Positions 1-45,643 of a stretch of 64,000 bases of DNA are shown in pieces (position 1 is the stretch's first letter; each line of letters begins with the position of its first letter). The stretch lies in assembly GCF_022846255.1 (NCBI RefSeq), contig NZ_AP025682.1; one strand, 5' to 3'. A program made the position numbers and the translations under genes. The notes under the pieces were generated by a model that ran no database searches, was not told the DNA's origin, and saw only the letters and a list, made by a program, of their open reading frames with translations. This DNA is from Escherichia coli. Lineage in GTDB: Bacteria > Pseudomonadota > Gammaproteobacteria > Enterobacterales > Enterobacteriaceae.

Positions 1-340
1 AAGTGTACGGTGCGGAGTTATCCGGCAGACGTTTGATCCACTCTTTATCAATCCGCCCGCGTTCCGCAATCGCGTCCACGTCATAGGCCAGAGCCAGCGT
101 GACAACATCAGCTTCAATACCGTTGATTACCGACGTCGCTTGTTTGCCTGAACCACCGTGTGACTGACGAATCACCACGTTATCGCCAGTTTGCTGTTTC
201 CAGTGGGCGCTGAATGCCTTGTTGTACTGTTCGTACAATTCGCGCGTTGGATCATATGAAACGTTAAGAAGCTGAATATCCTTTGCCATAACGCTGGTTG
301 CCGCCAGCAAAAATGTTAACCCTACGCCCCACTTTTTCAT
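1..340 (-). CDS. sbp: Sulfate-binding periplasmic protein Sbp, N-terminal part only (gene continues past the window start)
   Basis: Minus-strand reading from ATG at 338-340 gives [43 protein letters not shown]..., recognised as the Sbp signal peptide and N-terminus; position next to pfkA matches K-12 synteny. Confidence 0.85.
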
Positions 341-499
341 CGCCCGACTCTCTTATGTTGTGTTGTGATGAGCAAAGCGTGCCAGAAGGTTGACCAAACA
401 TTAAAGAATAAAAAAAGATTGGCTATAACTTGCGAGTATATGTTGGGGGATTAAAAAGGCGGAAGAAATCCGCCTCATATTGCTGACAAAGTGCGCTTT

Positions 500-610
500 G
501 TCCATGCCGGATGCGGCACAAACGCCTTATCCGGCCTACAAAAGTTTGCAAATTCAATAGATTACAGAATTCATGTAGGCCTGATAAGCGAAGCGCATCA
601 GGCCTTTTTG
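500..610. repeat. REP/BIME palindromic units in the sbp–pfkA intergenic region
   Basis: gccggatgcggcacaaacgccttatccggcctac and gtaggcctgataagcgaagcgcatcaggcc, the canonical E. coli REP consensus. Confidence 0.6.
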
Positions 611-659
611 CTTCTGTCATCGGTTTCAGGCTAAAGGAATCTGCCTTTTTCCGAAATCA

Positions 660-1622
660 TTAATACAGTTTTTTCGCGCAGTCCAGCCAGTCGCCTTTGA
701 ACGGACGCTTCATGTTTTCGATAGCGTCGATGATGTCGTGGTGAACCAGCTGTTCGTTCTGGATACCTACGCAACGACCACCGTAACCTGCCAGCAGCAG
801 CTCGATAGCGTAAGCGCCCATACGGGAAGCCAGAATACGGTCGTAAGGCACCGGAGAACCACCGCGCTGGATGTGGCCCAGCACAGTTGCGCGGGTTTCA
901 CGGCCGGTTTCTTTCTCGATGAAATGCGCCAGTTCGTCAACATCACACATATGTTCGGTAATCGCCACGATCGCGTGTTTTTTACCTTTCGCGATACCCG
1001 CTTTGATTTCGTTTACCAGGTCTTCACGGCTGAATTCAACTTCCGGAACCACAACGAATTCACAGCCACCGGCAATGGCCGCAGCCAACGTCAGATCGCC
1101 ACAATAACGGCCCATCACTTCCACCACGGAAATACGCTGGTGAGAAGAAGAGGTGTCACGCAGACGGTCGATCGCTTCTACAACGGTGCTCAGCGCAGTG
1201 AAGAAACCGATCGTGTAGTCAGTGCCTTTGATGTCGTTGTCGATAGTGCCCGGCAGGCCGATGCACGGGAAGCCCATTTCGGTCAGACGCATTGCACCCA
1301 TGTAGGAACCGTCACCGCCGATAACCACCAGCGCGTCGATCCCACGTTTTTTCAGGTTTTCGATAGCCACGGCGCGGATGTTCTCGTCGCGGAATTCCGG
1401 GAAACGCGCAGAACCGAGGAACGTACCACCACGGTTGATCATGTCAGAAACGCTGTAACGGTCTAGCTGTACCATACGGTCTTCATACAGACCCAGATAG
1501 CCGTCATAAATGCCCATTACTTCCAGACCTTCTGTCAGCGCAGAACGAACAACCCCGCGAATTGCGGCGTTCATGCCTGGCGCATCACCGCCGCTTGTCA
1601 ACACACCGATTTTCTTAATCAT
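660..1622 (-). CDS. pfkA: 6-phosphofructokinase I
   Basis: ORF 660..1718 contains [25 protein letters not shown]...; true start is the internal Met at 1620-1622, giving 320 aa; upstream part of the listed ORF is a spurious N-terminal extension. Confidence 0.95.
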
Positions 1623-1802
1623 GACTACCTCTGAACTTTGGAATGCAAAATGAAATCTGTTGCCGGAAGTCTTCTTGCACATCGAAGTGATCCAACGAAT
1701 GTGCAAATAGTATAACAATCACTTCCTGCTGAATTGATTCAGGTCAGGCCAAATGGCGGTATTTTATACACAAAATGCGGGTCTGGCTCTCTTTTATACT
1801 GA

Positions 1803-2705
1803 TTATGAAAGCATAGACCGTTTACCCTCCCTGGGTACGACGGAACAGGGGTCCTGATGGATAATCACATCCGATCCCGGAAAACGCCGTAAAATAGCCT
1901 GCTCTACCTGATCCGCCACCATATGTGCCTGAACCAAAGGCAGAGAGTCTTCCATTTCCAAATGAATCTGAATAAAGCGGGTCGGCCCTGACTGCCGCGT
2001 GCGAAGATCGTGAGCGCCGCTAACACCCGGCCAGGAAGTCACGATATCAATAATTTCTTGCCGTTCCTCATCAGGCAATGCGCGATCCAGTAATGACTGT
2101 ACCGCCTCATATCCCATGCGTAACGCGCTATATAAAATATAGATGCCGATCCCCAATGCAAACAGAGCATCGGCGCGATGCCAGCCGTACCAGGACAACC
2201 CCAGCGCCAGCAGAATTGCGCCGTTCATCATAACATCAGACTGGTAATGTAGCATATCAGCCCGCACCGCCTGGCTTTGCGTCCGGCGCACCACCCAACG
2301 CTGAAACGAGACAAGGATAATCGTACAAATTAGCGCCACAATTGTCACGATAACCCCGACGCCTGGATCTGTCATCGGTGTTGGAGATACCAGATGTTGA
2401 ATACCCGTCAAAAACAGGAATAGTGCCGAACCGGAGATAAACATACTTTGCGCCAGCGCCGCGAGGGACTCAGCTTTACCGTGACCAAACGAGTGATTAT
2501 CGTCGGCAGGTTGCAGGGAATATCGCACCACCAGTAAATTCGTCAACGACGCGCCGATATCCACCAGCGAATCCACCAGCGCGGCGAGAATACTCACCGA
2601 CCCGGTATACCACCATGCAAAAATTTTAATCAGCAATAGCAGCGAAGCCATCGCCGTCGCAGCAATCGCCGCCCGACTGACCAGCCGTCCATAAGATTGA
2701 TTCAT
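1803..2705 (-). CDS. fieF: Cation-diffusion-facilitator Fe/Zn efflux transporter FieF (YiiP)
   Basis: ORF contains [40 protein letters not shown]...; start set at the internal Met (2703-2705), 300 aa; multi-TM CDF-family protein. Confidence 0.9.
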
Positions 2706-2792
2706 AAATACTCCCGCTATCAACTGACGGTAGTATAACGGAAGCAAATCATCTGCAATGCATTAAGCAGCAGGCAAATTGAGGATAAAAAA

Positions 2793-2815
2793 AACCCCCA
2801 CATCATGTGGGGGAA
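2793..2815 (-). terminator. Rho-independent terminator of cpxP
   Basis: Plus strand aaaaaaacccccacatcatgtggggg; on the minus strand a GC stem cccccacatgatgtggggg followed by a T-run. Confidence 0.6.
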
Positions 2816-2853
2816 GACAGGGATGGTGTCTATGGCAAGGAAAACAGGGTTTA
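2793..2853 (-). ncRNA. cpxQ: CpxQ, sRNA processed from the cpxP 3' UTR (positional inference)
   Basis: Segment between the cpxP stop (2854) and its intrinsic terminator; CpxQ is known to derive from this 3' UTR in enterobacteria; exact ends not verifiable here. Confidence 0.4.
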
Positions 2854-3354
2854 CTACTGGGAACGTGAGTTGCTACTACTCAATAGCTTCAACGATGAAC
2901 TTTTTTGCCATTGCGTCACGTCGCGCAACTGCTCCATTCGTTGTTGATGTTTCTCGTTTAAAACCGCTTGCTGCTCCGGCGTTAACAGGCGATACATTTG
3001 GTTGCGGACTTTTGCCATCTCAACCTGACGAGCAATTTGCTCATTCGCCATTTTTTCTGCCTGTGCGCGCACAGCGTTTTCATCAAAATTTTCTGCGGTG
3101 ACAAGGCGATGCATTGTCTCCAGTTCGCTAACATTAACAGGAGGCTGTTCGTGCCGGGCCTGTTGCATAAGATCTCGCATCTGCTGACGCTGATGTTCGG
3201 TTAAACTTATGCCGTCGAACATATGGCTCTGCGTACTGCGCTGCGTAAGTTCTTCACCCGGATGCCAGTTATCGCCTGAACCGACTTCAGCAGCGTGGCT
3301 TAATGAACTGACTGCCAGCGTTGAGGCCATGACGGCAGCGGTAACTATGCGCAT
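2854..3354 (-). CDS. cpxP: Periplasmic Cpx-pathway adaptor/inhibitor CpxP
   Basis: [24 protein letters not shown]... with two LTxxQ-like segments ([24 protein letters not shown]); divergent from cpxRA as in K-12; 166 aa from the second Met. Confidence 0.9.
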
Positions 3355-5677: not shown

Positions 5678-6352
5678 TTATTTTCCCCACAAACGGCGGG
5701 AAAAATCTTCGATCTTGCCGCTAAGTCGGCGCTTTTGCATCGTTCGCGTCCAGCTTTTCGATAACCCTGCGGCGGAGAGTAAACGGTGATACTGATCGTC
5801 ATCAAACGGCATATGCCATGCGATGGCGGCAGCCTCCTGCACGGTCACATCGCTGACACGGGAAACCAACTCCAGCGGCGCATCAGCAGATACCAACCCT
5901 GGTGCAATTACGCTATACAACCACCCCACTTTACCCGTGTTTTGCATCAACTGCGCTATATCGCTGATATCAAAATGGTAATTGAGTTTATAGCAAGGTG
6001 AGCGTGGCTGGCTGACCTGAATTAATGCCTCTCCCCAGCGGAAAATATCACCAATATAAACATTACTTTCCGTCAGACCGTCGGTTGAGAGATTTTCGCC
6101 AAACGCAGGCGCAACAAACAGCTCCGCCTGTTCCGGAAATTCCCGCGCCCAGTAGAGATAATGCTCACGAGGATAATGACACAGCGCTCTGTCTGGCCCG
6201 CCGTGGATCTTTTTCTCCGCCTGTTCGTCACCTTCCAGCCCCAGGTCCGTCAGCATCAACTCACCATCAACCTGGATTTTGGCAATTGCGCTGGGTTTGC
6301 CTTCGGGATAAGCCTGAATCTTGCCTGTGTATACATCAACCGGATATCGCAT
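5678..6352 (-). CDS. yiiM: MOSC-domain protein YiiM
   Basis: ORF contains MRYPVDVYTGKIQAYPEGKPSAIAKIQVDGELMLTDLGLEGDEQAEKKIHGGPDRALCHYP...; start set at the internal Met to give 224 aa. Confidence 0.85.
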   Translation of the reverse strand: MRYPVDVYTGKIQAYPEGKPSAIAKIQVDGELMLTDLGLEGDEQAEKKIHGGPDRALCHYPREHYLYWAREFPEQAELFVAPAFGENLSTDGLTESNVYIGDIFRWGEALIQVSQPRSPCYKLNYHFDISDIAQLMQNTGKVGWLYSVIAPGLVSADAPLELVSRVSDVTVQEAAAIAWHMPFDDDQYHRLLSAAGLSKSWTRTMQKRRLSGKIEDFSRRLWGK

Positions 6353-6500: not shown

Positions 6501-7202
6501 TTATTTCACCGTACCTAAAATTTCGATTTTCGCCGCTCTGGCTTTGACTTTACGTGACCAGATAGAGGTAAGAATTGGCACCAGAATCGAAGTCACAATG
6601 ACCGCCGTCGCTACCAGCGAAGTTGCTGCCGGAGCCATAGGTTTAAACGCAGGCACCATTTCTGCAATCAGCACAGGTGTCGCTACCGCGGCCCCTGCGG
6701 AACTGGAAGCGGCAATTCCGGCAGTGCCCAGAATAATCATCGTCATGAGCGGCCCGGACTCCAACGACATCAACACAAATGCCCCAGCTTCTTCTTTTGT
6801 GCCGTACTGCTGCATGATGGAAGCGTAAAGTCCGCCGTTGGTCATATCCATCGCCGCCACCAGCGCCAGCGTTGAAAGTCCGGCAAAGAATCCAACTTCA
6901 ACACCATGTTCCGGAATAATGCGCGAGGCAATTGCCGCAACCACCCACGCGACGGCAATTTTAGTTACCACCAGCGTACCGGATTTACGCAGTACCGTTC
7001 CCGTCGCGCTTAATTTTATTGACGCCCCCATGCAAAAAAACCACACCGCCAGAATGGGCACCGTACCGGTAATCATCCCGTTGGTGAATGATCCAAAATA
7101 TTTCCCCGCCCCCGGCGAGAAGGTGTGGCACAGTGCGCCAAGGAATAGCGGGACGAGCATCATCCCCCCCGGGATTTTCTCAATCGAGCGTTTTATCTGC
7201 AT
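6501..7202 (-). CDS. kdgT: 2-keto-3-deoxygluconate permease KdgT, shortened (~233 aa versus the 327 aa I recall for K-12), apparently by an in-frame internal deletion
   Basis: [39 protein letters not shown]... N-terminus and ...[30 protein letters not shown]-terminus are present; the middle is missing around ...[12 protein letters not shown]|[13 protein letters not shown] (about 6711-6728). Confidence 0.75.
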
Positions 7203-14170: not shown

Positions 14171-14690
14171 ACACTGCCGGATGCGGCACAAGTGCCTTAT
14201 CCGGCCTACAGGTCAGCAACAGTTGTAGCCCTGATAAGACGCGACAGCGTCGCATCAGGCATTGATTGCCGGATGCGGCACGAGTGCCTTATCCGGCCTA
14301 CGGGTCGGCAATAGTTGTAGGCCTGATAAGACGCGACAGCGTCGCATCAGGCATTGATTGCCGGATGCGGCACGAGCGCCATATCCGGCCTACGGGTCGG
14401 CAATAGTTGTAGGCCTGATAAGACGCGACAGCGTCGCATCAGGCATTGATTGCCGGATGCGGCACGAGTGCCTTATCCGGCCTACGGGTCAGCAACAGTT
14501 GTAGGCCTGATAAGACGCGACAGCGTCGCATCAGGCATTGATTGCCGGATGCGGCACAAGTGCCTTATCCGGCCTACGGGTCGGCAATAGTTGTAGGCCT
14601 GATAAGACGCGACAGCGTCGCATCAGGCATTGATTGCCGGATGCGGCACGAGTGCCTTATCCGGCCTACGGGTCGTGCATCCGACAACAC
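14171..14690. repeat. BIME tandem array (REP pairs) filling the rhaA–rhaD intergenic region
   Basis: Unit gccggatgcggcac(a/g)agtgccttatccggcctacgggtc(a/g)gcaa(c/t)agttgtaggcctgataagacgcgacagcgtcgcatcaggcattgatt recurs with a ~93-bp period; starts at about 14177, 14270, 14363, 14450, 14543 and 14636. Confidence 0.8.
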
Positions 14691-14712
14691 CGAATTAACA
14701 GGAACACAGAAC

Positions 14713-25276: not shown

Positions 25277-25370
25277 TACCACCACCTTACATATATTACT
25301 CATTAATGTATGTGCGAAAATTACGCCGGAAAGTTAATTAACGAAAGCGGATTTTTTCATATTGTTTTGT

Positions 25371-25415
25371 TTTTGCGAGACGGCATCCAAAGATAATGTA
25401 ACAGTTTCAGTTATT
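25371..25415. repeat. Copy B of the ~45-bp intergenic repeat
   Basis: ttttgcgagacggcatccaaagataatgtaacagtttcagttatt. Confidence 0.6.
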
Positions 25416-25671
25416 TCAATTGTTACTCAAAAATGGTTTATTACTTTTAATTAAGCGGGGGCACATCTACAGGAAAGAAACAACAAATAATAAGGATGAA
25501 TTATGGATGCTATAAATATTTTATATTCAAGAATATTTTTTGATTGGGTCTTCATTTGCTTCATCAGGATGGTGTACCCGAAAAAGTCAGCAGCTTTACC
25601 GCACCAGGGTTTAAGGTGAAATCTACCATTCATAACGACCGGTCAGTGCCGCACCAACCGGTCTTTAATTG

Positions 25672-25950
25672 TTAGTAGTAGTAAATTTGTGGATAACAGT
25701 CCGGGAACCAGACGATTCCTTCCGGATCATCCCCCTGCATTACCCGATGACATTGGCGTCGATCATCTGCGCGACGGCGAAGCGTAGTATAGAGCCGCTT
25801 CCATTCATGATCGCCCGGTGTACTGTAGTTTACCCAACAATCCATTGAAGGGTGACGCCATTTACCTGTAAGTGTTGGGATCCCTGAATGCTTATGCGGC
25901 TTCGCTTTACCATTACGATCCCTATCTTTACGCGTATTAAACGTGGACAT
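25672..25950 (-). CDS. Hypothetical small protein (92 aa), His/Cys/Trp-rich; possibly the 3' part of a frameshifted gene
   Basis: ORF MSTFNTRKDRDRNGKAKPHKHSGIPTLTGKWRHPSMDCWVNYSTPGDHEWKRLY...; AT-rich context; no recognisable family. Confidence 0.3.
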   Translation of the reverse strand: MSTFNTRKDRDRNGKAKPHKHSGIPTLTGKWRHPSMDCWVNYSTPGDHEWKRLYTTLRRRADDRRQCHRVMQGDDPEGIVWFPDCYPQIYYY

Positions 25951-26011
25951 TTTTAGTCTCCTGTTAAGAGTTCTAAAAATGTGCTTCCTTAAAATAGTTC
26001 ATCATTTTCCC

Positions 26012-26224
26012 TTAATTCGCATAGCGTGCTTTTGCACGAATTTCCGATACGCGGGGACCATTATGATAGCGTCGATGCCCACACATCCAACAAGAACAAA
26101 TACAGGGAGTACGAAAGCAAATACCTGATGCTTTTTTGCTTCCATCGCCTGCAGTGCGATAACGACAGCGGATTTTTTTTAATCGCACCATATGATGGCG
26201 ACGTTCAGCACGATTACGGGTCAT
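26012..26224 (-). CDS. Hypothetical Cys-rich small protein (70 aa), possible zinc-ribbon
   Basis: ORF MTRNRAERRHHMVRLKKIRCRYRTAGDGSKKASGICFRTPCICSCWMCGHRRYH...; same strand as, and 60 bp upstream of, the 92-aa ORF in a different frame. Confidence 0.3.
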   Translation of the reverse strand: MTRNRAERRHHMVRLKKIRCRYRTAGDGSKKASGICFRTPCICSCWMCGHRRYHNGPRVSEIRAKARYAN

Positions 26225-26308
26225 AGCAAAACTCCTGAGCAGGCGGCACTATGCCGCTTTCATAGGAGTTCTGAATGCTGGTGCTTTCTGTATGGCATAA
26301 CCATGCCT

Positions 26309-26599
26309 CTAACGGTTAAGTGCTTGCAGCACATGTTGCGGATCATTGGCAATCGCTCGCAGCAAAGCCTTTGCAGGCCCGGTCGGTGAACGTCGCCCCT
26401 GCTCCCAGTTACGCAACGTGTCTACGCTTACGGAAATAAGATCGGCAAATTTAGATTGTGACAACCCTGAAGCGCGGCGTATTTCTTTGATTTTCATAGC
26501 ATCAACTTCAAAAGTCCGTGAAGGCTGTCGCGTTCCTTCAATAATTTCATTCATCTGGGCCATGCTGTGAGTCAACCGCTCAAAAAGTGCCTTATCCAT
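26309..26599 (-). CDS. HTH (XRE-type) antitoxin, HigA-2-like
   Basis: HTH segment IKEIRRASGLSQSKFADLISVSVDTLRNWEQGRRSPTGPAKALL; start codon abuts the stop of the upstream toxin ORF. Confidence 0.7.
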   Translation of the reverse strand: MDKALFERLTHSMAQMNEIIEGTRQPSRTFEVDAMKIKEIRRASGLSQSKFADLISVSVDTLRNWEQGRRSPTGPAKALLRAIANDPQHVLQALNR

Positions 26600-26911
26600 T
26601 TACCACCTCGTATTTAACAACCGGAGCATTGCTTTTTCCTGGGGAGACAGATCATCTTTAATACCCTTACGATAAATAAGCAGTAATCTGATCTCATAAT
26701 GTTTAACCTGATGAAAGTAAATAACCCTGACACCAGCACGTTTCCCCTTTCCTCCTGAGACCCATCGAACCTTTCTTAACCCACCAGTTTCAGGTATTAC
26801 CTCACCATAGTCAGGATTCAAGGCCAGGAAAAACTGAAAACGACTGAATTCATCGTCGTTCAGCAGTTTTTGAACATCTTCAGTAAAAATTTCCGTTTCG
26901 ATGAAGAGCAT
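26600..26911 (-). CDS. Type II toxin, RelE/ParE superfamily, HigB-2-like
   Basis: 103 aa; ...ETGGLRKVRWVSGGKGKRAGVRVIYFHQVKHYEIRLLLIYRKGIKDDLSPQEKAMLRLL... matches the conserved core of the Vibrio HigB-2 family; toxin-first gene order. Confidence 0.7.
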   Translation of the reverse strand: MLFIETEIFTEDVQKLLNDDEFSRFQFFLALNPDYGEVIPETGGLRKVRWVSGGKGKRAGVRVIYFHQVKHYEIRLLLIYRKGIKDDLSPQEKAMLRLLNTRW

Positions 26912-27030
26912 AATTATACGCCATTGGCTTAGAGTAACAATCCTTTTTGTACGTCATTGACGTACCATTGAAACCACTAGCTTACTGATAGTGCTCCAGC
27001 AAAACCACGTCTCTGCCGGGTTTGTCTTTA

Positions 27031-27053
27031 CATTTGCGAGGCGCTTTCCAGAT
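27031..27053. repeat. Copy C (5' half only) of the ~45-bp intergenic repeat
   Basis: catttgcgaggcgctttccagat, 21/23 match to the 5' half of copy A. Confidence 0.5.
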
Positions 27054-27127
27054 TTTTCACGCCCGTGAATTTCCCTGTATCCATCCAGCAAAAACGGGTG
27101 TATAAAACTGTACATTCATACAGCAAA

Positions 27128-28048
27128 ATGAGTTCTACTATGGCACTGGAAAAAGGAATTGCAGAGTTAGTCGAAGAGTTTATCGCTGCGGGTCGCCCCT
27201 CATCGCGCCAACAAAGTATTACGCAGCGCAGAGAGGGCTATATCGCCAGCGCTGTCCTTGCGGGTGAGACAGAAACGCGGGTAGATATTCAGACTATCGA
27301 ACTTGAAGGGATGACCTTACGAATAGTGTCACCGCTGAATGCCCCGACATTACTCCCGACGATAATTTATTACTACGGTGGCTGTTTTGTTAGCGGCGGG
27401 TTCGCAACTCACGACAACCAGCTGCGCCAGTTAGCCTATTACGGGCAATGTCGGATTATTGCCGTCCAGTATCGGCTGGCACCGGAACATACTTTCCCCG
27501 CCGCCCATGATGATGCACAACGAGGTGCAGAATTAGTCCGGCAACACGCCGAACGACTCGGCGTTGATAAACAACGAATAACTCTTGCCGGTGACAGTGC
27601 GGGAGGGCATCTGGCGCTGGTAACTGCTTTGCGATTGAAGCGTGCTGGCGAGTGGCAACCAGCACAACTCATCTTAATTTATCCTATGCTTGATGCGACT
27701 GCGCATTTCGAAAGCTACATACGCAATGGTCACGATTACATCATCACACGCGACACTTTACTGAGCGGCTTTGAGATGTACCTGCCAGGCATTGAACGCA
27801 GGCATCCTGAAGCCAGCCCTATTTGGCGCAATGATTTCAATGGCTTGCCACCTGTACATATCATTACCGCTGAATACGACCCACTTTGCGATGAAGGTGA
27901 AGCGTTGTATCACCGCATGACAGGGCAAGGAGTGCAATGCACCTGCCAACGCTACCTTGGCGTTATCCACGGATTTTTTCAGTTAGGTGGTATCAGTGAG
28001 GCTGCGCGATCGGCGCTACGGGATGTTGCCTGGAGAGCGGGAAGGTAA
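27128..28048 (+). CDS. Alpha/beta-hydrolase, hormone-sensitive-lipase-type esterase (Aes-like)
   Basis: Oxyanion-hole motif YYYGGCFVSGG (HGG-type) and nucleophile elbow GDSAGG; C-terminal HGF; start placed at ATG 27128 (MSSTMALEKG), alternatives at 27065 (GTG) and 27140. Confidence 0.7.
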   Translation: MSSTMALEKGIAELVEEFIAAGRPSSRQQSITQRREGYIASAVLAGETETRVDIQTIELEGMTLRIVSPLNAPTLLPTIIYYYGGCFVSGGFATHDNQLRQLAYYGQCRIIAVQYRLAPEHTFPAAHDDAQRGAELVRQHAERLGVDKQRITLAGDSAGGHLALVTALRLKRAGEWQPAQLILIYPMLDATAHFESYIRNGHDYIITRDTLLSGFEMYLPGIERRHPEASPIWRNDFNGLPPVHIITAEYDPLCDEGEALYHRMTGQGVQCTCQRYLGVIHGFFQLGGISEAARSALRDVAWRAGR

Positions 28049-28111
28049 CTCCGGACCAGGGCCCAGAAAAGGTTTTCAGATTGAAAACCTTTTCAGTCAA
28101 GTAAAACGCCC

Positions 28112-37063: not shown

Positions 37064-37939
37064 ATGGACTTTTTTACGTTATTTTCACCGGATGGGGTCA
37101 TGCTGGAAACAAACGTGGTATGTATCGTTATCGCGTTAATGTTTCTTTATACCTTTGTGGGGATATGCGCGGGATTTGGCGGTGGTTTAACCACCATGCC
37201 GCTCGTCACGTTAATGCTCCCCGTAAAAATGGCAACTCCGCTCTCGGTGATTGTCGGCACCGCGACCGCCTTGTACGCCACCTGGCTGTCACGTAAAGAA
37301 ACGGATTGGCGATCGGCAATGGTACTGATTATTTTCTCGTTTCTGGGAATACCCGTCGGTTTATATGCGCTGTCGTATTTACCCGACCATTTTATGAAAG
37401 TGGGCTTAGGCGGATTCCTTATCCTGTACTCCTTTTACAGTATGTTTATTCCACGCCTGCCGATTTATGACCGTAGCTGGATCGCCGCACCTATCGGCGC
37501 CGTGGCAGGAGCGTTAGGGGCAGCATTTTCAACCAACGGACCGCCGATGGTTATCTACGGTATGCTGCGTAACTTAGGCCCGGCGGCATTTCGCGGCACT
37601 CTGAACGCTTTCTTCACCGCAAACAACATCGCGGTGATCGGCGGGCTGGCGACCAGCGGAATTTTGACTGTCTCTATCTTTAAACTGGTGCTGTTTTGTA
37701 TTCCCACCATGATCCTCGGTTCACTGGTTGGACAATATGTGCATAAACGCATTTCGGTCAAAGTGTTCCGTGTGATGGTCTTTTTATTGCTGATTGCCTC
37801 CGGTTCTATGTTGATAAAAGGCGCGCTGGGAATTCCCGCCGCTGCCGCACTTCTTCCTCCGTTTACCTTGTTAGTTATACTGCAACTGGCATTTGGTAAA
37901 AAAGTGGCGGCAATCCGTCGGGCGGAAGAAAGTAAATAA
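37064..37939 (+). CDS. TauE/SafE-family (DUF81) membrane permease; not a K-12 yih gene as far as I recall
   Basis: 291 aa; polytopic hydrophobic protein with Gly-rich TM segments (GFGGGLTTMPLVTLML, GAVAGALGAAFSTNGPPMVIYG) typical of TauE/SafE anion exporters; RBS aggaaatatt before ATG. Confidence 0.7.
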   Translation: MDFFTLFSPDGVMLETNVVCIVIALMFLYTFVGICAGFGGGLTTMPLVTLMLPVKMATPLSVIVGTATALYATWLSRKETDWRSAMVLIIFSFLGIPVGLYALSYLPDHFMKVGLGGFLILYSFYSMFIPRLPIYDRSWIAAPIGAVAGALGAAFSTNGPPMVIYGMLRNLGPAAFRGTLNAFFTANNIAVIGGLATSGILTVSIFKLVLFCIPTMILGSLVGQYVHKRISVKVFRVMVFLLLIASGSMLIKGALGIPAAAALLPPFTLLVILQLAFGKKVAAIRRAEESK

Positions 37940-38044: not shown

Positions 38045-40081
38045 ATGGATACGCCACGCCCACAGCTATTAGATTTTCAATTTCATCAGAATAACGACAG
38101 TTTTACTCTACGTTTTCAAGACCGCCTTATTTTAATCCATAGCAAAGATAATCCTTGTTTATGGATTGGTTCAGGTATAGCGGATATCGATATGTTCCGC
38201 GGTAATTTCAGCATTAAAGATAAATTGCAGGAGAAAATTGCGCTTACCGACGCCATCGTCAGCCAGTCACCGGATGGCTGGTTAATCCATTTCAGCCGTG
38301 GTTCTGACATTAGCGCCACGCTGAATATCTCTGCCGACGATCATGGCCGTTTATTGCTGGAACTACAAAACGACAACCTTAACCACAACCGCATCTGGCT
38401 GCGCCTTGCCGCACAGCCGGAAGATCATATCTACGGCTGCGGCGAACAATTCTCCTACTTTGATCTGCGCAGCAAACCGTTCCCGCTGTGGACCAGTGAA
38501 CAAGGCGTTGGTCGCAACAAACAAACCTATGTCACCTGGCAGGCCGACTGCAAAGAGAATGCGGGAGGGGATTACTACTGGACCTTCTTTCCACAACCCA
38601 CGTTTGTTAGCACGCAGAAGTATTACTGCCATGTTGATAACAGTTGCTATATGAACTTCGACTTTAGCGCGCCGGAATACCATGAACTGGCGCTGTGGGA
38701 AGACAAAGCAACACTGCGTTTTGAATGTGCTGATACATACATCTCCCTGCTGGAAAAATTAACCGCGCTGCTGGGACGCCAGCCAGAACTGCCCGACTGG
38801 ATTTATGACGGAGTAACGCTCGGCATTCAGGGCGGCACTGAGGTGTGCCAGAAGAAACTGGACACCATGCGTAACGCGGGCGTGAAGGTCAACGGCATCT
38901 GGGCGCAGGATTGGTCCGGTATTCGTATGACCTCTTTTGGCAAACGCGTAATGTGGAACTGGAAGTGGAACAGCGAAAACTACCCGCAACTGGATTCACG
39001 TATCAAGCAGTGGAACAAAGAGGGCGTACAGTTCCTTGCCTATATCAACCCGTATGTTGCCAGCGATAAAGACCTCTGCGAAGAAGCGGCAAAGCGCGGC
39101 TATCTGGCAAAAGATGCCGCCGGCGGCGATTATCTGGTGGAGTTTGGCGAGTTCTACGGCGGCGTTGTCGATCTCACTAATCCGGAAGCCTACGCCTGGT
39201 TCAAGGAAGTGATCAAAAAGAACATGATTGAACTCGGCTGCGGCGGCTGGATGGCTGACTTCGGCGAGTATCTGCCCACCGACACTTACCTGCATAACGG
39301 CGTCAGCGCCGAAATTATGCATAACGCCTGGCCTGCGCTGTGGGCGAAATGTAACTACGAAGCCCTTGAAGAAACGGGCAAGCTCGGCGAGATCCTCTTC
39401 TTTATGCGCGCCGGTTCCACCGGTAGCCAAAAATATTCCACCATGATGTGGGCGGGCGACCAGAACGTTGACTGGAGTCTGGACGATGGACTGGCGTCTG
39501 TCGTCCCGGCGGCGCTGTCGCTGGCAATGACCGGACATGGCCTGCATCACAGTGATATTGGCGGTTACACCACCCTGTTTGAGATGAAGCGCAGCAAAGA
39601 GCTGCTGCTGCGCTGGTGCGATTTCAGCGCCTTCACGCCGATGATGCGCACCCATGAAGGTAACCGTCCAGGCGACAACTGGCAGTTTGATAGCGACGCG
39701 GAAACTATCGCCCATTTTGCCCGTATGACCACCGTCTTCACTACCCTGAAACCTTACCTGAAAGAGGCCGTCGCGCTGAATGCGAAGTCCGGCCTGCCGG
39801 TTATGCGCCCGCTGTTCCTGCATTACGAAGACGATGCACAGACCTACACCCTGAAATATCAGTACCTGTTAGGCCGCGACATTCTGGTCGCTCCGGTGCA
39901 TGAAGAAGGCCGTAGCGACTGGACGCTCTATCTGCCGGAGGATAACTGGGTCCACGCCTGGACGGGTGAAGCGTTCCGGGGCGGGGAAGTGACCGTTAAT
40001 GCGCCCATCGGTAAACCGCCGGTCTTTTATCGCGCCGATAGCGAATGGGCGGCACTGTTCGCGTCGTTAAAAAGCATCTAA
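38045..40081 (+). CDS. yihQ: Sulfoquinovosidase (GH31)
   Basis: MDTPRPQLLDFQFHQNNDSFTLRFQDRLILIHSKDNPCLWIGSG...; GH31 catalytic region (…WAQDWSGIRM…, …WMADFGEYLP…); 678 aa from the internal Met. Confidence 0.9.
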   Translation: MDTPRPQLLDFQFHQNNDSFTLRFQDRLILIHSKDNPCLWIGSGIADIDMFRGNFSIKDKLQEKIALTDAIVSQSPDGWLIHFSRGSDISATLNISADDHGRLLLELQNDNLNHNRIWLRLAAQPEDHIYGCGEQFSYFDLRSKPFPLWTSEQGVGRNKQTYVTWQADCKENAGGDYYWTFFPQPTFVSTQKYYCHVDNSCYMNFDFSAPEYHELALWEDKATLRFECADTYISLLEKLTALLGRQPELPDWIYDGVTLGIQGGTEVCQKKLDTMRNAGVKVNGIWAQDWSGIRMTSFGKRVMWNWKWNSENYPQLDSRIKQWNKEGVQFLAYINPYVASDKDLCEEAAKRGYLAKDAAGGDYLVEFGEFYGGVVDLTNPEAYAWFKEVIKKNMIELGCGGWMADFGEYLPTDTYLHNGVSAEIMHNAWPALWAKCNYEALEETGKLGEILFFMRAGSTGSQKYSTMMWAGDQNVDWSLDDGLASVVPAALSLAMTGHGLHHSDIGGYTTLFEMKRSKELLLRWCDFSAFTPMMRTHEGNRPGDNWQFDSDAETIAHFARMTTVFTTLKPYLKEAVALNAKSGLPVMRPLFLHYEDDAQTYTLKYQYLLGRDILVAPVHEEGRSDWTLYLPEDNWVHAWTGEAFRGGEVTVNAPIGKPPVFYRADSEWAALFASLKSI

Positions 40082-40126: not shown

Positions 40127-41512
40127 ATGAGTCACATCACAACGGAAGATCCAGCAACTCTACGCCTGCCCTTTAAAGAGAAACTCTCTTACGGTATCGG
40201 CGATCTGGCCTCTAACATCCTACTGGATATCGGCACGCTTTATCTTTTGAAGTTTTATACCGATGTTCTGGGGCTGCCTGGCACCTATGGCGGCATTATC
40301 TTTTTGATTTCAAAATTCTTTACCGCCTTTACCGATATGGGTACCGGCATTATGTTGGATTCCCGACGCAAGATCGGTCCAAAAGGTAAGTTCCGTCCTT
40401 TTATTCTGTATGCGTCATTTCCGGTCACCCTGCTGGCGATCGCCAACTTTGTCGGCACACCGTTTGATGTCACCGGTAAAACGGTGATGGCCACCATCCT
40501 GTTTATGCTTTACGGACTGTTTTTCAGCATGATGAACTGCTCGTATGGCGCGATGGTCCCCGCTATTACTAAAAACCCCAACGAACGCGCCTCACTGGCG
40601 GCATGGCGTCAGGGTGGCGCTACATTGGGCCTGCTGCTTTGTACGGTGGGATTCGTGCCGGTTATGAATCTTATCGAGGGTAATCAGCAACTTGGCTATA
40701 TCTTCGCCGCCACGCTGTTTTCACTGTTCGGCCTGCTGTTTATGTGGATCTGCTATTCGGGCGTGAAAGAGCGTTATGTCGAAACCCAACCTACCAATCC
40801 GGCGCAAAAGCCTGGCTTGTTGCAATCTTTCCGCGCAATTGCGGGGAACCGCCCACTGTTCATTTTGTGCATTGCCAACCTCTGTACCTTAGGGGCGTTT
40901 AACGTCAAGCTCGCCATTCAGGTCTATTACACCCAGTACGTGCTTAACGATCCCATCCTGTTGTCATATATGGGATTTTTCAGCATGGGCTGTATTTTCA
41001 TCGGCGTGTTCCTGATGCCTGGTGCAGTCAGACGTTTTGGTAAGAAGAAGGTCTATATCGGCGGTCTGCTGATCTGGGTGCTGGGCGATCTGCTCAACTA
41101 TTTCTTCGGCGGCGGCTCGGTCAGCTTTGTGGCTTTCTCCTGCCTGGCGTTCTTTGGTTCGGCGTTTGTTAACAGCCTGAACTGGGCGCTGGTTTCTGAC
41201 ACCGTCGAGTACGGCGAGTGGCGCACCGGTGTGCGTTCAGAAGGTACGGTCTACACCGGTTTCACCTTCTTTCGCAAAGTATCTCAGGCGCTGGCAGGTT
41301 TCTTCCCAGGCTGGATGCTGACGCAAATTGGCTATGTGCCAAACGTCGCCCAGGCTGACCACACTATCGAAGGGTTGCGCCAACTGATCTTCATCTACCC
41401 AAGCGCACTGGCAGTAGTCACCATTGTGGCAATGGGTTGCTTCTACAGTCTGAACGAGAAGATGTACGTCCGCATTGTTGAAGAGATAGAAGCCCGTAAA
41501 CGCACGGCGTAA
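40127..41512 (+). CDS. yihP: GPH-family sugar:cation symporter YihP
   Basis: MSHITTEDPATLRLPFKEKLSYGIGDLASNILLDIGTLYLLKFYTDVLGLP...; 12-TM. Confidence 0.85.
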   Translation: MSHITTEDPATLRLPFKEKLSYGIGDLASNILLDIGTLYLLKFYTDVLGLPGTYGGIIFLISKFFTAFTDMGTGIMLDSRRKIGPKGKFRPFILYASFPVTLLAIANFVGTPFDVTGKTVMATILFMLYGLFFSMMNCSYGAMVPAITKNPNERASLAAWRQGGATLGLLLCTVGFVPVMNLIEGNQQLGYIFAATLFSLFGLLFMWICYSGVKERYVETQPTNPAQKPGLLQSFRAIAGNRPLFILCIANLCTLGAFNVKLAIQVYYTQYVLNDPILLSYMGFFSMGCIFIGVFLMPGAVRRFGKKKVYIGGLLIWVLGDLLNYFFGGGSVSFVAFSCLAFFGSAFVNSLNWALVSDTVEYGEWRTGVRSEGTVYTGFTFFRKVSQALAGFFPGWMLTQIGYVPNVAQADHTIEGLRQLIFIYPSALAVVTIVAMGCFYSLNEKMYVRIVEEIEARKRTA

Positions 41513-41554: not shown

Positions 41555-42958
41555 ATGTCTGACCATAATCCACTGACATTAAAACTGAATCTGCGGGAAA
41601 AAATCGCCTATGGTATGGGCGACGTCGGTTCGAATTTAATGCTTAGCATCGGCACTCTGTATCTCCTCAAATTTTATACCGATGAATTAGGGATGCCTGC
41701 TTACTATGGCGGGATTATCTTTCTGGTGGCGAAATTCTTTACCGCATTTACCGATATGCTCACCGGATTTTTACTCGACTCGCGGAAAAATATTGGACCT
41801 AAAGGAAAATTCAGGCCGTTTATTTTATACGCAGCGATTCCGGCGGCGTTAATTGCAACGCTCCAGTTTATCGCCACCACCTTTAGTTTGCCGGTTAAAA
41901 CGACGATTGCCACCGCACTGTTTATGATGTTTGGACTTTCATACAGTCTGATGAACTGCTCGTATGGCGCGATGATCCCGGCCATTACCAAAAACCCGAA
42001 TGAGCGCGCGCAACTCGCTGCTTACCGCCAGGGTGGTGCAACCATAGGGCTATTGATCTGTACCGTGGCGTTTATTCCTTTGCAGTCACTATTTTCTGAC
42101 TCCACCGTCGGCTACGCCTGCGCGGCACTGATGTTCTCCATTGGCGGCTTTATTTTTATGATGCTGTGCTACAGAGGTGTCAAAGAGCATTATGTGGACG
42201 CGACGCCAACCGGACATAAGGCCAGTATTCTCAAATCATTTTGCGCGATATTTCGTAATCCACCTTTGCTGGTATTGTGCATTGCTAACCTGTGTACCCT
42301 GGCGGCATTTAATATCAAACTGGCGATTCAGGTCTATTACACCCAGTATGTGCTGAATGATATTAACTTATTGTCGTGGATGGGATTCTTTAGTATGGGA
42401 TGCATTCTCATCGGCGTATTACTGGTGCCACTAACTGTAAAATGTTTTGGTAAAAAACAGGTTTATCTGGCTGGCATGGTGCTGTGGGCGGTGGGGGATA
42501 TCCTGAATTATTGCTGGGGCAGTAACTCATTCACTTTCGTCATGTTCTCTTGTGTCGCCTTTTTTGGCACGGCCTTTGTAAACAGCCTGAACTGGGCACT
42601 GGTACCAGATACCGTAGATTATGGTGAATGGAAAACAGGTATACGTGCCGAAGGTTCTGTTTATACCGGTTATACCTTCTTTCGTAAAATTTCAGCCGCA
42701 CTTGCTGGCTTCTTGCCCGGCATTATGCTGACGCAAATCGGTTATATTCCCAACATCGCGCAAAGCGATGCAACATTACAGGGTTTGCGTCAGCTCATTT
42801 TTATCTGGCCTTGTGCGCTGGCAATTATTGCTGCATTGACGATGGGGTTCTTTTACACGCTCAATGAGAAACGGTTTGCACTGATTATTGAGGAAATTAA
42901 CCAACGCAAAAATAAAGAAATCGAGACAGAAGAAAAAACGGCTTCCGTAACGTTATAA
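41555..42958 (+). CDS. yihO: GPH-family sulfoquinovose transporter YihO
   Basis: MSDHNPLTLKLNLREKIAYGMGDVGSNLMLSIGTLYLLKFYTDELGMP...; paralogous to the preceding yihP. Confidence 0.85.
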   Translation: MSDHNPLTLKLNLREKIAYGMGDVGSNLMLSIGTLYLLKFYTDELGMPAYYGGIIFLVAKFFTAFTDMLTGFLLDSRKNIGPKGKFRPFILYAAIPAALIATLQFIATTFSLPVKTTIATALFMMFGLSYSLMNCSYGAMIPAITKNPNERAQLAAYRQGGATIGLLICTVAFIPLQSLFSDSTVGYACAALMFSIGGFIFMMLCYRGVKEHYVDATPTGHKASILKSFCAIFRNPPLLVLCIANLCTLAAFNIKLAIQVYYTQYVLNDINLLSWMGFFSMGCILIGVLLVPLTVKCFGKKQVYLAGMVLWAVGDILNYCWGSNSFTFVMFSCVAFFGTAFVNSLNWALVPDTVDYGEWKTGIRAEGSVYTGYTFFRKISAALAGFLPGIMLTQIGYIPNIAQSDATLQGLRQLIFIWPCALAIIAALTMGFFYTLNEKRFALIIEEINQRKNKEIETEEKTASVTL

Positions 42959-43025
42959 ATGTCAATAGCCGCTATTTCCATCCTGATGGGTGGCGGCCTC
43001 CCTACGTTTAAAAAATGGACTTATT

Positions 43026-43718
43026 ATGAAAAATATTAATGCAATAATTTTATTATCTTCTCTGACCTCTGCCTCGGTATTCGCTGGCGCATACGTCGAA
43101 AACAGGGAAGCATATAATCTCGCCTCCGATCAGGGCGAGGTTATGCTACGTGTGGGTTATAACTTCGATATGGGCGCGGGTATTATGCTAACCAATACCT
43201 ACACCTTTCAGCGAGAAGATTAACTCAAACATGGCTATAATGAAATTGAAGGTTGGTATCCTTTATTTAAACCTACCGATAAATTAACCATCCAGCCCGG
43301 TGGCTTAATTAATGACAAGAGTATCGGTTCGGGTGGTGCTGTTTATCTGGATGTTAACTACAAATTTACTCCGTGGTTTAACCTGACGGTGCGTAATCGC
43401 TATAACCATAATAATTACAGCTCTACAGATTTGAACGGCGAATTGGATAATAACGACACCTATGAAGTTGGCACCTACTGGAACTTTAAAATAACAGAAA
43501 AATTTTCCTATACATTTGAACCACATTACTTCATGCGAGTGAATGACTTTAATAGTAGCAACGGGAAAGATCATCATTGGGAAATCACTAACACCTTCCG
43601 TTACCGTATTAATGAACACTGGCTTCCTTATTTCGAATTGCGCTGGTTAGACCGCAACGTCGAGCCGTACCACCGCGAGCAAAACCAGATTCGTATCGGA
43701 ACGAAGTATTTCTTCTGA
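43026..43718 (+). pseudogene. ompL: ompL outer-membrane porin, disrupted by a premature TAA at 43221-43223 (codon 66)
   Basis: ORF 42990..43223 (signal peptide MKNINAIILLSSLTSASVFA...TFQRED*) and ORF 43389..43718 (...IRIGTKYFF) are in the same frame; translation after the stop continues LKHGYNEIEGWYPLFKPTDKLT... without further stops. Confidence 0.8.
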
Positions 43719-43770
43719 TGTAAAAATTCCTGATGCGATGCTGGCGCATCTTATCAGGTCTACAAAAGCC

Positions 43771-43803
43771 AAAAAAAACCTGCCATCGCTGGCAGGTTTT
43801 TTA
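43771..43803. terminator. Bidirectional intrinsic terminator between ompL and typA
   Basis: aaaaaaaacctgccatcgctggcaggtttttta: GC stem flanked by an A-run and a T-run. Confidence 0.6.
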
Positions 43804-43819
43804 TGACTAAAAAACGAAA

Positions 43820-45643
43820 TTAATCGTCTTTCGGTGCGCGGTTGGCGCGACGACGATCGTTTTCCGTCAGGTGACGTTTACGAATACGGATAGAGGTCGG
43901 AGTCACTTCTACCAGTTCGTCATCATCGATGAACTCCAGAGCTTGTTCCAGAGTCATGCGGATAGGCGGAACCAGAACAACGGCTTCGTCAGTACCGGAA
44001 GCACGCATGTTGGTCAGTTTCTTACCGGTCAGGCAGTTTACAGTCAGGTCGTTAGAGCGGCTGTGAATACCGATAATCTGACCTTCGTAAACTTCAGCAC
44101 CGTGACCGAGGAACAGCTTACCGCGATCCTGCAGACCGAACAGCGCGAACGCTACCGCTTTACCCTGACCGTTAGAGATCAGTACGCCGTTCTGACGCTG
44201 GCCCACTTCACCCGGACGTACGTCGTCGTAGTGGCTGAAGGTGGAGTACAGCAGACCAGTACCGGAAGTCATGGTCATGAACTCAGAACGGAAGCCAATC
44301 AGACCACGGCTTGGGATCACGTAGTCGAGACGTACGCGGCCTTTACCGTCTGGATTCATGTTTTTCAGGTCGCCTTTACGTTCGCCCAGCGCCTGCATTA
44401 CAGAACCCTGATGCTGTTCTTCAACGTCCAGAGTCACGTTTTCATACGGCTCTTGTTTACGACCGTCGATTTCACGGAAGATAACTTTCGGACGGGATAC
44501 CGCCAGTTCGAAACCTTCACGACGCATGTTTTCGATAAGAACAGACAGGTGCAGTTCGCCACGACCAGAAACGCGGAACGCATCGGCGTCTTCGGTTTCT
44601 TCTACGCGCAGCGCAACGTTGTGTACCAGTTCTTTGTTCAGACGATCCAGGATCTGACGAGACGTTACGAACTTACCTTCTTTACCGCAGAACGGCGAGG
44701 TGTTAACGCAGAAGAACATAGAAACGGTCGGCTCATCAACGGAGAGTGCCGGCAGCGCTTCAACGTTTTGCGTGTCGCAAACGGTGTCAGAAATGTTCAG
44801 TTCGCCAAGACCCGTGATCGCCACGATATCGCCAGCTTCCGCCAGATCGGTTTCGATACGTTCCAGACCGAGGTGGCCCAGCACTTTACCGACTTTCGCG
44901 TTGCGGGTTTTGCCTTCGCTATCGATGATAGTAACCTGCTGGTTCGGCTTCACTTTACCGCGCTTGATGCGGCCAATGCCGATAACGCCAACATAGCTGT
45001 TGTAATCGAGCTGAGAAATCTGCATCTGGAACGGACCGTCAAGGTCAACGTCCGGCGCAGGAACGTGGTCAACAATCGCCTGGTACAGCGGGGTCATGTC
45101 TTCCGCCATATCTTCGTGGTCCAGACCCGCGATACCGTTCAGCGCAGAAGCGTAAACGATCGGGAAGTCCAGCTGCTCGTCGGTCGCGTCGAGGTTAACG
45201 AACAGATCGAATACCTGATCCACAACCCAATCAGGACGCGCGCCAGGGCGGTCAACTTTGTTGATAACAACAATCGGCTTCAGGCCGTAAGCAAACGCTT
45301 TTTTGGTTACGAAGCGCGTTTGCGGCATCGGGCCGTCAAATGCGTCAACCACCAGCAGCACTGAGTCTACCATGGACATTACACGTTCAACTTCACCACC
45401 GAAGTCGGCGTGCCCCGGGGTATCAACGATGTTGATACGGTAATCATTCCATTTGATAGCGGTGTTTTTCGCGAGGATGGTAATCCCACGCTCTTTCTCC
45501 AAATCGTTGGAGTCCATCACGCGCTCTTGGGTTTCGGCACGAGAGTCGAACGTACCGGATTGTTGGAGCAGCTTGTCTACCAGGGTGGTTTTACCATGGT
45601 CTACGTGCGCGATGATGGCGATATTACGCAATTTTTCGATCAC
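43820..45643 (-). CDS. typA: Ribosome-associated translational GTPase BipA/TypA
   Basis: 607 aa; [32 protein letters not shown]... (G1 [10 protein letters not shown]3 DTPGH, NKVD). Confidence 0.95.

Follow-up and report, generated by a model that had tools for sequence, protein, structure and literature searches.

Interruption of the ompL reading frame

The locus raises the question of whether its porin gene, ompL, still encodes a functional product, or whether a single premature stop codon has recently turned it into a pseudogene. We examined this in a stretch of 64,000 nucleotides (hereafter the window), which represents the part of the E. coli chromosome that extends from sbp to the rrn operon following mobB. 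The ompL frame occupies positions 43026..43718 on the + strand and comprises 231 codons including its normal stop. It is interrupted once. The sole internal stop is an ochre TAA at 43221..43223 (+, codon 66), where T at position 43221 takes the place of the G of GAA (Glu66); the base just 3' of this stop is C. The gene is thereby divided into a translatable 5' remnant (43026..43223, +), composed of 65 sense codons and the premature TAA, and an untranslated 3' remnant (43224..43718, +), composed of 164 sense codons and the normal TGA. The latter begins with LKHGYNEIEGWYPLFKPTDKLT, ends with ...IRIGTKYFF and contains no secondary lesions. In the mechanical list of open reading frames, ompL appeared as two ORFs, one running to 43223 and the other starting from GTG at 43389, the earliest in-frame start past the stop; the latter ORF is 109 aa long and lacks a signal peptide.

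The features needed for outer-membrane targeting are still encoded, as judged by inspection. Codons 1-20 (43026..43085, +) specify the signal peptide MKNINAIILLSSLTSASVFA, with a lysine near the N-terminus, a hydrophobic core, a VFA motif and predicted cleavage before GAY; the stretch is the same as in K-12 OmpL save for N3K. The C-terminal ...KYFF motif is located 3' of the premature stop and is thus not made.

When codon 66 was restored to Glu, the repaired product matched the Pfam KdgM profile PF06178 with an E-value of 3.4e-90 (residues 14-230, profile positions 1-222 of 222) and the NCBIfam equivalog NF007434 'porin OmpL' with 472.4 bits over positions 1-230 of 230, the curated cutoff being 288 bits. 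It also aligned to NanC (PDB 2WJQ, 2WJR) over residues 27-226 (E about 1e-9), and in this alignment the stop falls at about residue 46 of the 215 residues of NanC. An AlphaFold model of the repaired protein from the single sequence reached a pLDDT of 33 and was discarded. By our own rough arithmetic, the chance that an open continuation of 164 codons would follow a random stop is approximately 4e-4. Because the repaired product matches both the KdgM and the OmpL profile over their full length, the frame is one interrupted gene and not a chance pairing of two ORFs. An uninterrupted frame of 230 residues, as required for functional OmpL, is not present here owing to the TAA at codon 66. An earlier note, made from the sequence alone, had described an otherwise intact ompL with a normal signal peptide, about 65 codons ahead of TAA at 43221-43223 and a normal ...IRIGTKYFF end. 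This description was borne out, as there is a single internal stop after 65 sense codons and the match to OmpL extends over the whole of both halves. The TAA at 43221 lies in no homopolymer or repeat, and the lesion is a substitution, not an indel. Phase variation of ompL by slippage was ruled out on the same grounds.

Comparison with intact alleles

The nearest annotated intact allele, WP_000789940.1 (found in 95-3322 and Z1323HEC0016), differs from the ompL of the window by two nucleotides. The first is a synonymous polymorphism at 43136 (+, codon 37), where the window has C and the nearest RefSeq alleles have T; the second, T/G at 43221, converts GAA to TAA. As the C at 43136 is common to K-12 and contigs L037 and L011, it is not derived. 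A still closer relative was obtained by look-up of the exact YihQ protein of the window: in L037, a 133-kb metagenome contig (with 10 further similar places), 12,036 of 12,037 bases equalled the window and the sole difference was G at 43221. In L011, too, 1,335 bases without a difference from the window were followed by G at 43221. GAA was found at codon 66 in 95-3322, Z1323HEC0016, K-12 and the intact contigs among L005-L042, in agreement with the glutamate codon that the earlier note had given for the intact protein. That note had also named what would speak against inactivation, namely functional orthologues with a stop at this position; none occurred among the relatives examined. Taken together, the G-to-T transversion at 43221 is the single derived change on its haplotype, and the pseudogene is very young. 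With one difference in 12,037 bases and no secondary lesions, the proposed recent and clean pseudogenisation is well sustained.

The alignment with K-12 ompL, which had been suggested for confirmation of a single G-to-T difference, turned out unsuitable for that purpose. The lineage of the window carries a divergent allele, from which the K-12 gene differs by 45 nt and 7 codons (93.5% identity). The claim of a single difference therefore fails against K-12 and holds against L037. The K-12 allele was informative in another respect, for the dN/dS of the repaired ompL relative to K-12 was 0.039, which shows the gene to have been under strong purifying selection until the recent stop. The closest complete RefSeq genome was only 99.7% identical over 21 kb, and the lineage of the window is therefore poorly represented in that set.

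Setting of ompL in the sulfoquinovose cluster

The genes are arranged in the order csqR and yihV (both on the opposite strand), yihU-yihT-yihS-yihR, a TauE/SafE-family gene, yihQ-yihP-yihO-ompL, the convergent typA and glnALG. The order yihQ-yihP-yihO-ompL is common to the window, 95-3322, Z1323HEC0016 and K-12. The cluster is of the type described as the 'long' yih (sulfoquinovose) cassette (PMC12608037), and synteny places ompL as its last gene, so that the assignment of the porin to the sulfoquinovose cluster was correct. OmpL has been termed a 'sulfolipid porin' (PMC8006165) and is the porin of the long cassette, induced on sulfoquinovose (PMC12608037). According to work cited in bioRxiv 10.1101/2021.11.10.468170, it lets through solutes of less than about 600 Da; in the same preprint, antibiotic resistance was unchanged in a ΔompL mutant.

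The genes preceding ompL, yihQ (38045-40081), yihP (40127-41512) and yihO (41555-42958), all on the + strand, are intact; they share 99.86-100% identity with Z1323HEC0016 and contain no stops or gaps. The same applies to the whole of the cluster upstream of ompL, in which all nine genes from csqR to yihO are intact and share 99.8-100% identity with the closest genome. The yihQPO-ompL genes form one transcription unit in which ompL is last (bioRxiv 10.1101/2020.04.27.065417). Downstream, typA (43820..45643, -) converges with ompL. A polar effect of the ompL stop was ruled out because ompL ends the operon and typA is convergent. In the ompL/typA spacer, a REP-like hairpin (43732-43750) is found ahead of a terminator-like site (43773..43802), the latter a G+C-rich hairpin between an A-run and a T-run, listed without a strand and reported on the - strand, its symmetry being visible.

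Several observations concern gene content in and around the cassette. Between yihR and yihQ there is a gene for a 291-aa TauE/SafE-family 'sulfite exporter' (37064-37939, +); at this site K-12 has a 198-nt gap only. The gene was present in 1,287 of 5,426 complete E. coli genomes, O157:H7 included, and goes unmentioned in the 2025 article on variants of the yih cassette (PMC12608037). It is a candidate for an extra sulfonate exporter of the sulfoquinovose pathway. Contig L023 carries a different island in the ompL/typA interval, with sulfatase, radical-SAM and ATP-grasp genes. In GCA_024100175.1 (L039, 1-4281), which has the exact YihQ of the window, filamentous-phage-like genes (Zot-like and secretin) lie upstream of yihQ, where they replace yihU-yihR and the TauE gene.

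Rarity of the allele and other lesions of ompL

The gene was present in 3,850 of 5,426 complete E. coli genomes, i.e. about 29% were devoid of it. In E. coli Nissle 1917 and in many pathogenic strains, the yih cassette is short (yihTUVW) and likewise contains no ompL (PMC12608037). Because of both, ompL is dispensable in nature. The premature stop itself was much rarer. Of the complete E. coli genomes with a match to the 81 bases around it (2,804 in number), not one contained the exact 81-mer. The E66 stop was also sought in JGI metagenome contigs, the neighbouring polymorphic sites being set to N so as to admit any allele background, and 0 matches were obtained. The exact YihQ of the window occurred at 6 distinct places among the matches listed, all of them accompanied by an OmpL of 230 aa. 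The TAA allele is confined to one clone, and the suggestion that it might be strain-specific was right with respect to the complete genomes.

Other lesions of ompL were encountered in public assemblies. An 875-nt deletion spanning yihO and ompL (window positions 42364-43238) was present in L014/L023 and 13 similar places; its junction was found in 0 of 5,426 complete genomes. Smaller lesions comprised 1-bp deletions near 43219 (L017) and at 43317 (L021) and a 4-bp deletion at 43355 (L015). Assembly errors may account for several of these small indels; L018/L024 represents an error-ridden assembly. In L025 (4709-8128, run SRR25418686), yihQ was in two pieces (164 aa and 476 aa), yihP was shortened to 445 aa and ompL was frameshifted; either the sulfoquinovose cluster is decaying there or the assembly is poor.

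Carriers of the stop and alternative explanations

The TAA allele was recovered in two assemblies besides the window. The Logan assembly of run DRR322657 (L016) equalled the window at 6,330 of 6,330 bases and that of run DRR727809 (L008) at 2,604 of 2,604, with TAA present in both. Logan assemblies are built per run from reads and therefore amount to read-level support for the stop, with the qualification that DRR322657 may represent the source strain's own reads, so that plausible independence can be claimed for just one of the two runs. The allele has also been deposited in GenBank: the 65-aa product is BDH35530.1 (TRECRb50_43460) and the 109-aa product is BDH35531.1. The two stand next to each other in E. 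coli TRECRb50, which is probably the genome that the window comes from, and both are labelled 'hypothetical protein'.

Look-up of the 65-aa product had seemingly yielded nine independent carriers. This count was rejected, as eight of the nine contigs just end at 43220-43222; any of the eight that reach 43221 carry G, and L008 alone has TAA. Mixed-sample assemblies (L005-L013) often break contigs at window-equivalent positions 43220-43222 of ompL, probably due to a strain-variation bubble at nearby polymorphic sites. Such breaks yield partial 65-codon calls which mimic truncated OmpL in exact-sequence look-ups. Caution is thus warranted when carriers of truncated proteins are counted in this manner.

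A sequencing or assembly error, with G as the true base at 43221 and ompL intact, could be suspected from the fact that one base alone separates the stop allele from the closest haplotype (L037), that T occurs at this position in no complete RefSeq genome and that JGI metagenomes provided no match. However, the recurrence of the same allele in the assemblies of two runs and in the deposited TRECRb50 genome is hard to reconcile with an error, and a substitution outside any homopolymer or repeat would be atypical of platform errors. Moreover, the remaining genes of the window, about 50 in number, contain neither stops nor error-like frameshifts, the exceptions being the normal Sec-UGA of fdoG and a deletion allele of kdgT. 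We therefore regard an error, which the earlier note had left as an option, as very improbable. We attach equally little weight to the suggestion that the allele still functions, either because its UAA is suppressed by an ochre-suppressor tRNA or because a leaky UAA-C is read through. In its favour, the stop is followed by C, and UAA-C is not the strongest termination context; also, the ompL frame downstream is perfectly intact. The intact frame finds its explanation in the youth of the mutation (one difference in 12 kb). In E. coli, termination is most efficient at UAA, and the basal level of read-through is much too low to be useful. A local suppressor was ruled out within the 64-kb window, which contains no tRNA gene. 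The absence of a stop at codon 66 from all relatives examined gives no sign of conserved recoding, and programmed recoding of the stop codon is not supported (GAA in the relatives examined, the TAA 81-mer in 0 of 2,804 complete genomes).

The question of why the gene was lost is separate from whether it was lost. The stop might have been positively selected, if the loss of OmpL removed an entry route for phages, colicins or toxic solutes, or saved its cost in a host where sulfoquinovose glycosides are not used. The several routes by which ompL has been lost (the 875-nt deletion, the 1-bp and 4-bp deletions and the truncation of the cassette described in PMC12608037) and the occurrence of the TAA allele in more than one data set would fit such a process. 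Against this, each lesion is rare (0 of 5,426 complete genomes for the 875-nt junction, 0 of 2,804 for TAA), some of the small indels may have arisen only in assembly, and the dN/dS of 0.039 points to long-term purifying selection wherever ompL is kept. Furthermore, no receptor role of OmpL was found in the accessible literature, and the antibiotic resistance of the ΔompL mutant was unchanged. Positive selection for the stop thus seems unlikely to us, and it is similarly doubtful that a recurrent adaptive knockout of the sulfoquinovose-induced porin is in progress across E. coli lineages, driven by a role of OmpL as an entry point for a phage, a bacteriocin or a toxic solute in the gut, with the E66 stop caught midway.

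Proposed origin and consequence of the stop

Our preferred reading, to which we assign a probability of roughly 0.9, is that ompL of the window is a genuine and very recent loss-of-function allele that arose by one G-to-T nonsense change. A single transversion at 43221 converted the Glu66 codon GAA to the ochre codon TAA on a haplotype otherwise equal to that of its intact relatives, and translation would end after 65 codons. Removal of the 20-residue signal peptide would leave about 45 of approximately 210 mature residues. Judged from spacing along the NanC alignment, these might correspond to the first two to three strands of the 12-stranded barrel of the KdgM family. The outer-membrane assembly machinery recognises a C-terminal aromatic motif. 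Because it would have too few strands and no such motif, the fragment is not expected to insert as a pore; devoid of ...KYFF, it would presumably be degraded. Nor would the downstream 164 codons be usefully translated, as their first start is the GTG at 43389 and no signal peptide would precede the product. On these grounds the truncated ompL is almost certainly non-functional.

No other gene is expected to be affected, and the sulfoquinovose pathway genes are intact. The strain has probably lost only its dedicated outer-membrane route, with general porins taking small sulfosugars. As to the effect of OmpL loss on growth on sulfoquinovose or its glycosides, nothing was found in the accessible literature. 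In the simplest view, a dispensable accessory gene would have acquired the stop by drift, with a neutral or mildly deleterious effect. The allele is an ordinary strain-specific nonsense pseudogene.

Other features of the window

A second altered gene of the window is kdgT (6501-7202, -), which has an in-frame internal deletion of 282 nt, i.e. 94 codons, removing about residues 165-258 of 327. The deletion lies between 18-nt direct repeats encoding GTAGIA and probably disables the transporter. The exact 233-aa KdgT product was found in 1,692 blocks of the draft-assembly collection, also in backgrounds about 1% divergent, and for this reason the deletion is not private to the strain of the window. 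GCA_976941965.1 differs from the window at 2 positions in 6.7 kb around kdgT. In RefSeq complete genomes the deletion is rare, and all 59 full-length matches that were sampled there lacked it. The distribution might reflect either a recurrent repeat-mediated event or an allele spread by recombination.

Elsewhere, the yiiE-fabY segment (25277-28111) is not the same as in the closest genome, where genes for a HigB toxin and an HTH protein are found. In the window, this segment contains a gene for a 327-aa alpha/beta hydrolase (27065-28048; Abhydrolase_3, E 1.7e-68) and several small ORFs (25672-26911, -). The rhaA-rhaD spacer (14171-14712) is 542 nt long as compared with 276 nt in the closest genome, with 266 nt extra.

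Implications for annotation and use

The two adjacent entries BDH35530.1 and BDH35531.1 should be annotated as one ompL pseudogene, not as unrelated 'hypothetical proteins'. A nonsense pseudogene is a well-known type of event, it concerns here a known and dispensable gene, and the allele had already been deposited in mis-annotated form. Beyond the annotation of the strain, the stop matters little. It adds one more data point to the view that E. coli can do without the outer parts of the yih cassette. The strain nevertheless represents a natural porin-only knockout, in which every other gene of the sulfoquinovose cluster is intact. Comparison with a T-to-G revertant could reveal the share of OmpL in the uptake of sulfoquinovose and its glycosides; no revertant-type test of OmpL in sulfosugar uptake was found in the accessible literature.

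Comparison with known systems

The closest counterpart is the intact OmpL WP_000789940.1, in which all the other 229 residues are the same as in OmpL of the window. Both this allele and L037 have G at 43221 (Glu66) and therefore encode a full-length porin. K-12 OmpL (b3875; NF007434; WP_000723465.1) is likewise encoded directly after yihO at the end of a long yih cassette and comprises 230 codons. In contrast to K-12, the gene of the window has the premature TAA at codon 66 and six further amino-acid differences. The surroundings differ as well: yihN-yihM-yihL (about 3.2 kb) separate ompL from typA in K-12, whereas in the lineage of the window ompL adjoins typA, with only the spacer 43719-43819 between them.

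At the level of the protein family, the repaired OmpL resembles NanC and KdgM (PF06178; 2WJQ, 2WJR), small 12-stranded outer-membrane channels, and matches the whole Pfam profile. Unlike these channels, only about 45 mature residues could be produced here, too few for a barrel. The substrates within the family are assigned by inference, OmpL being linked to sulfoquinovose and its glycosides (PMC8006165) and, by their names, NanC to sialic acid and KdgM to oligogalacturonate.

Other public lesions of ompL (L014/L023, L017, L021 and L015) represent independent inactivations on other backgrounds, and none of them equals the E66 stop. Finally, strains with the short yih cassette resemble the strain of the window in that a functional ompL is missing there too (PMC12608037). 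In those strains, ompL-yihOPQRS has been deleted together with the first steps of the pathway, whereas in the window a point mutation hits the porin alone and, unlike in the short-cassette strains, all catabolic and inner-membrane transport genes are intact.
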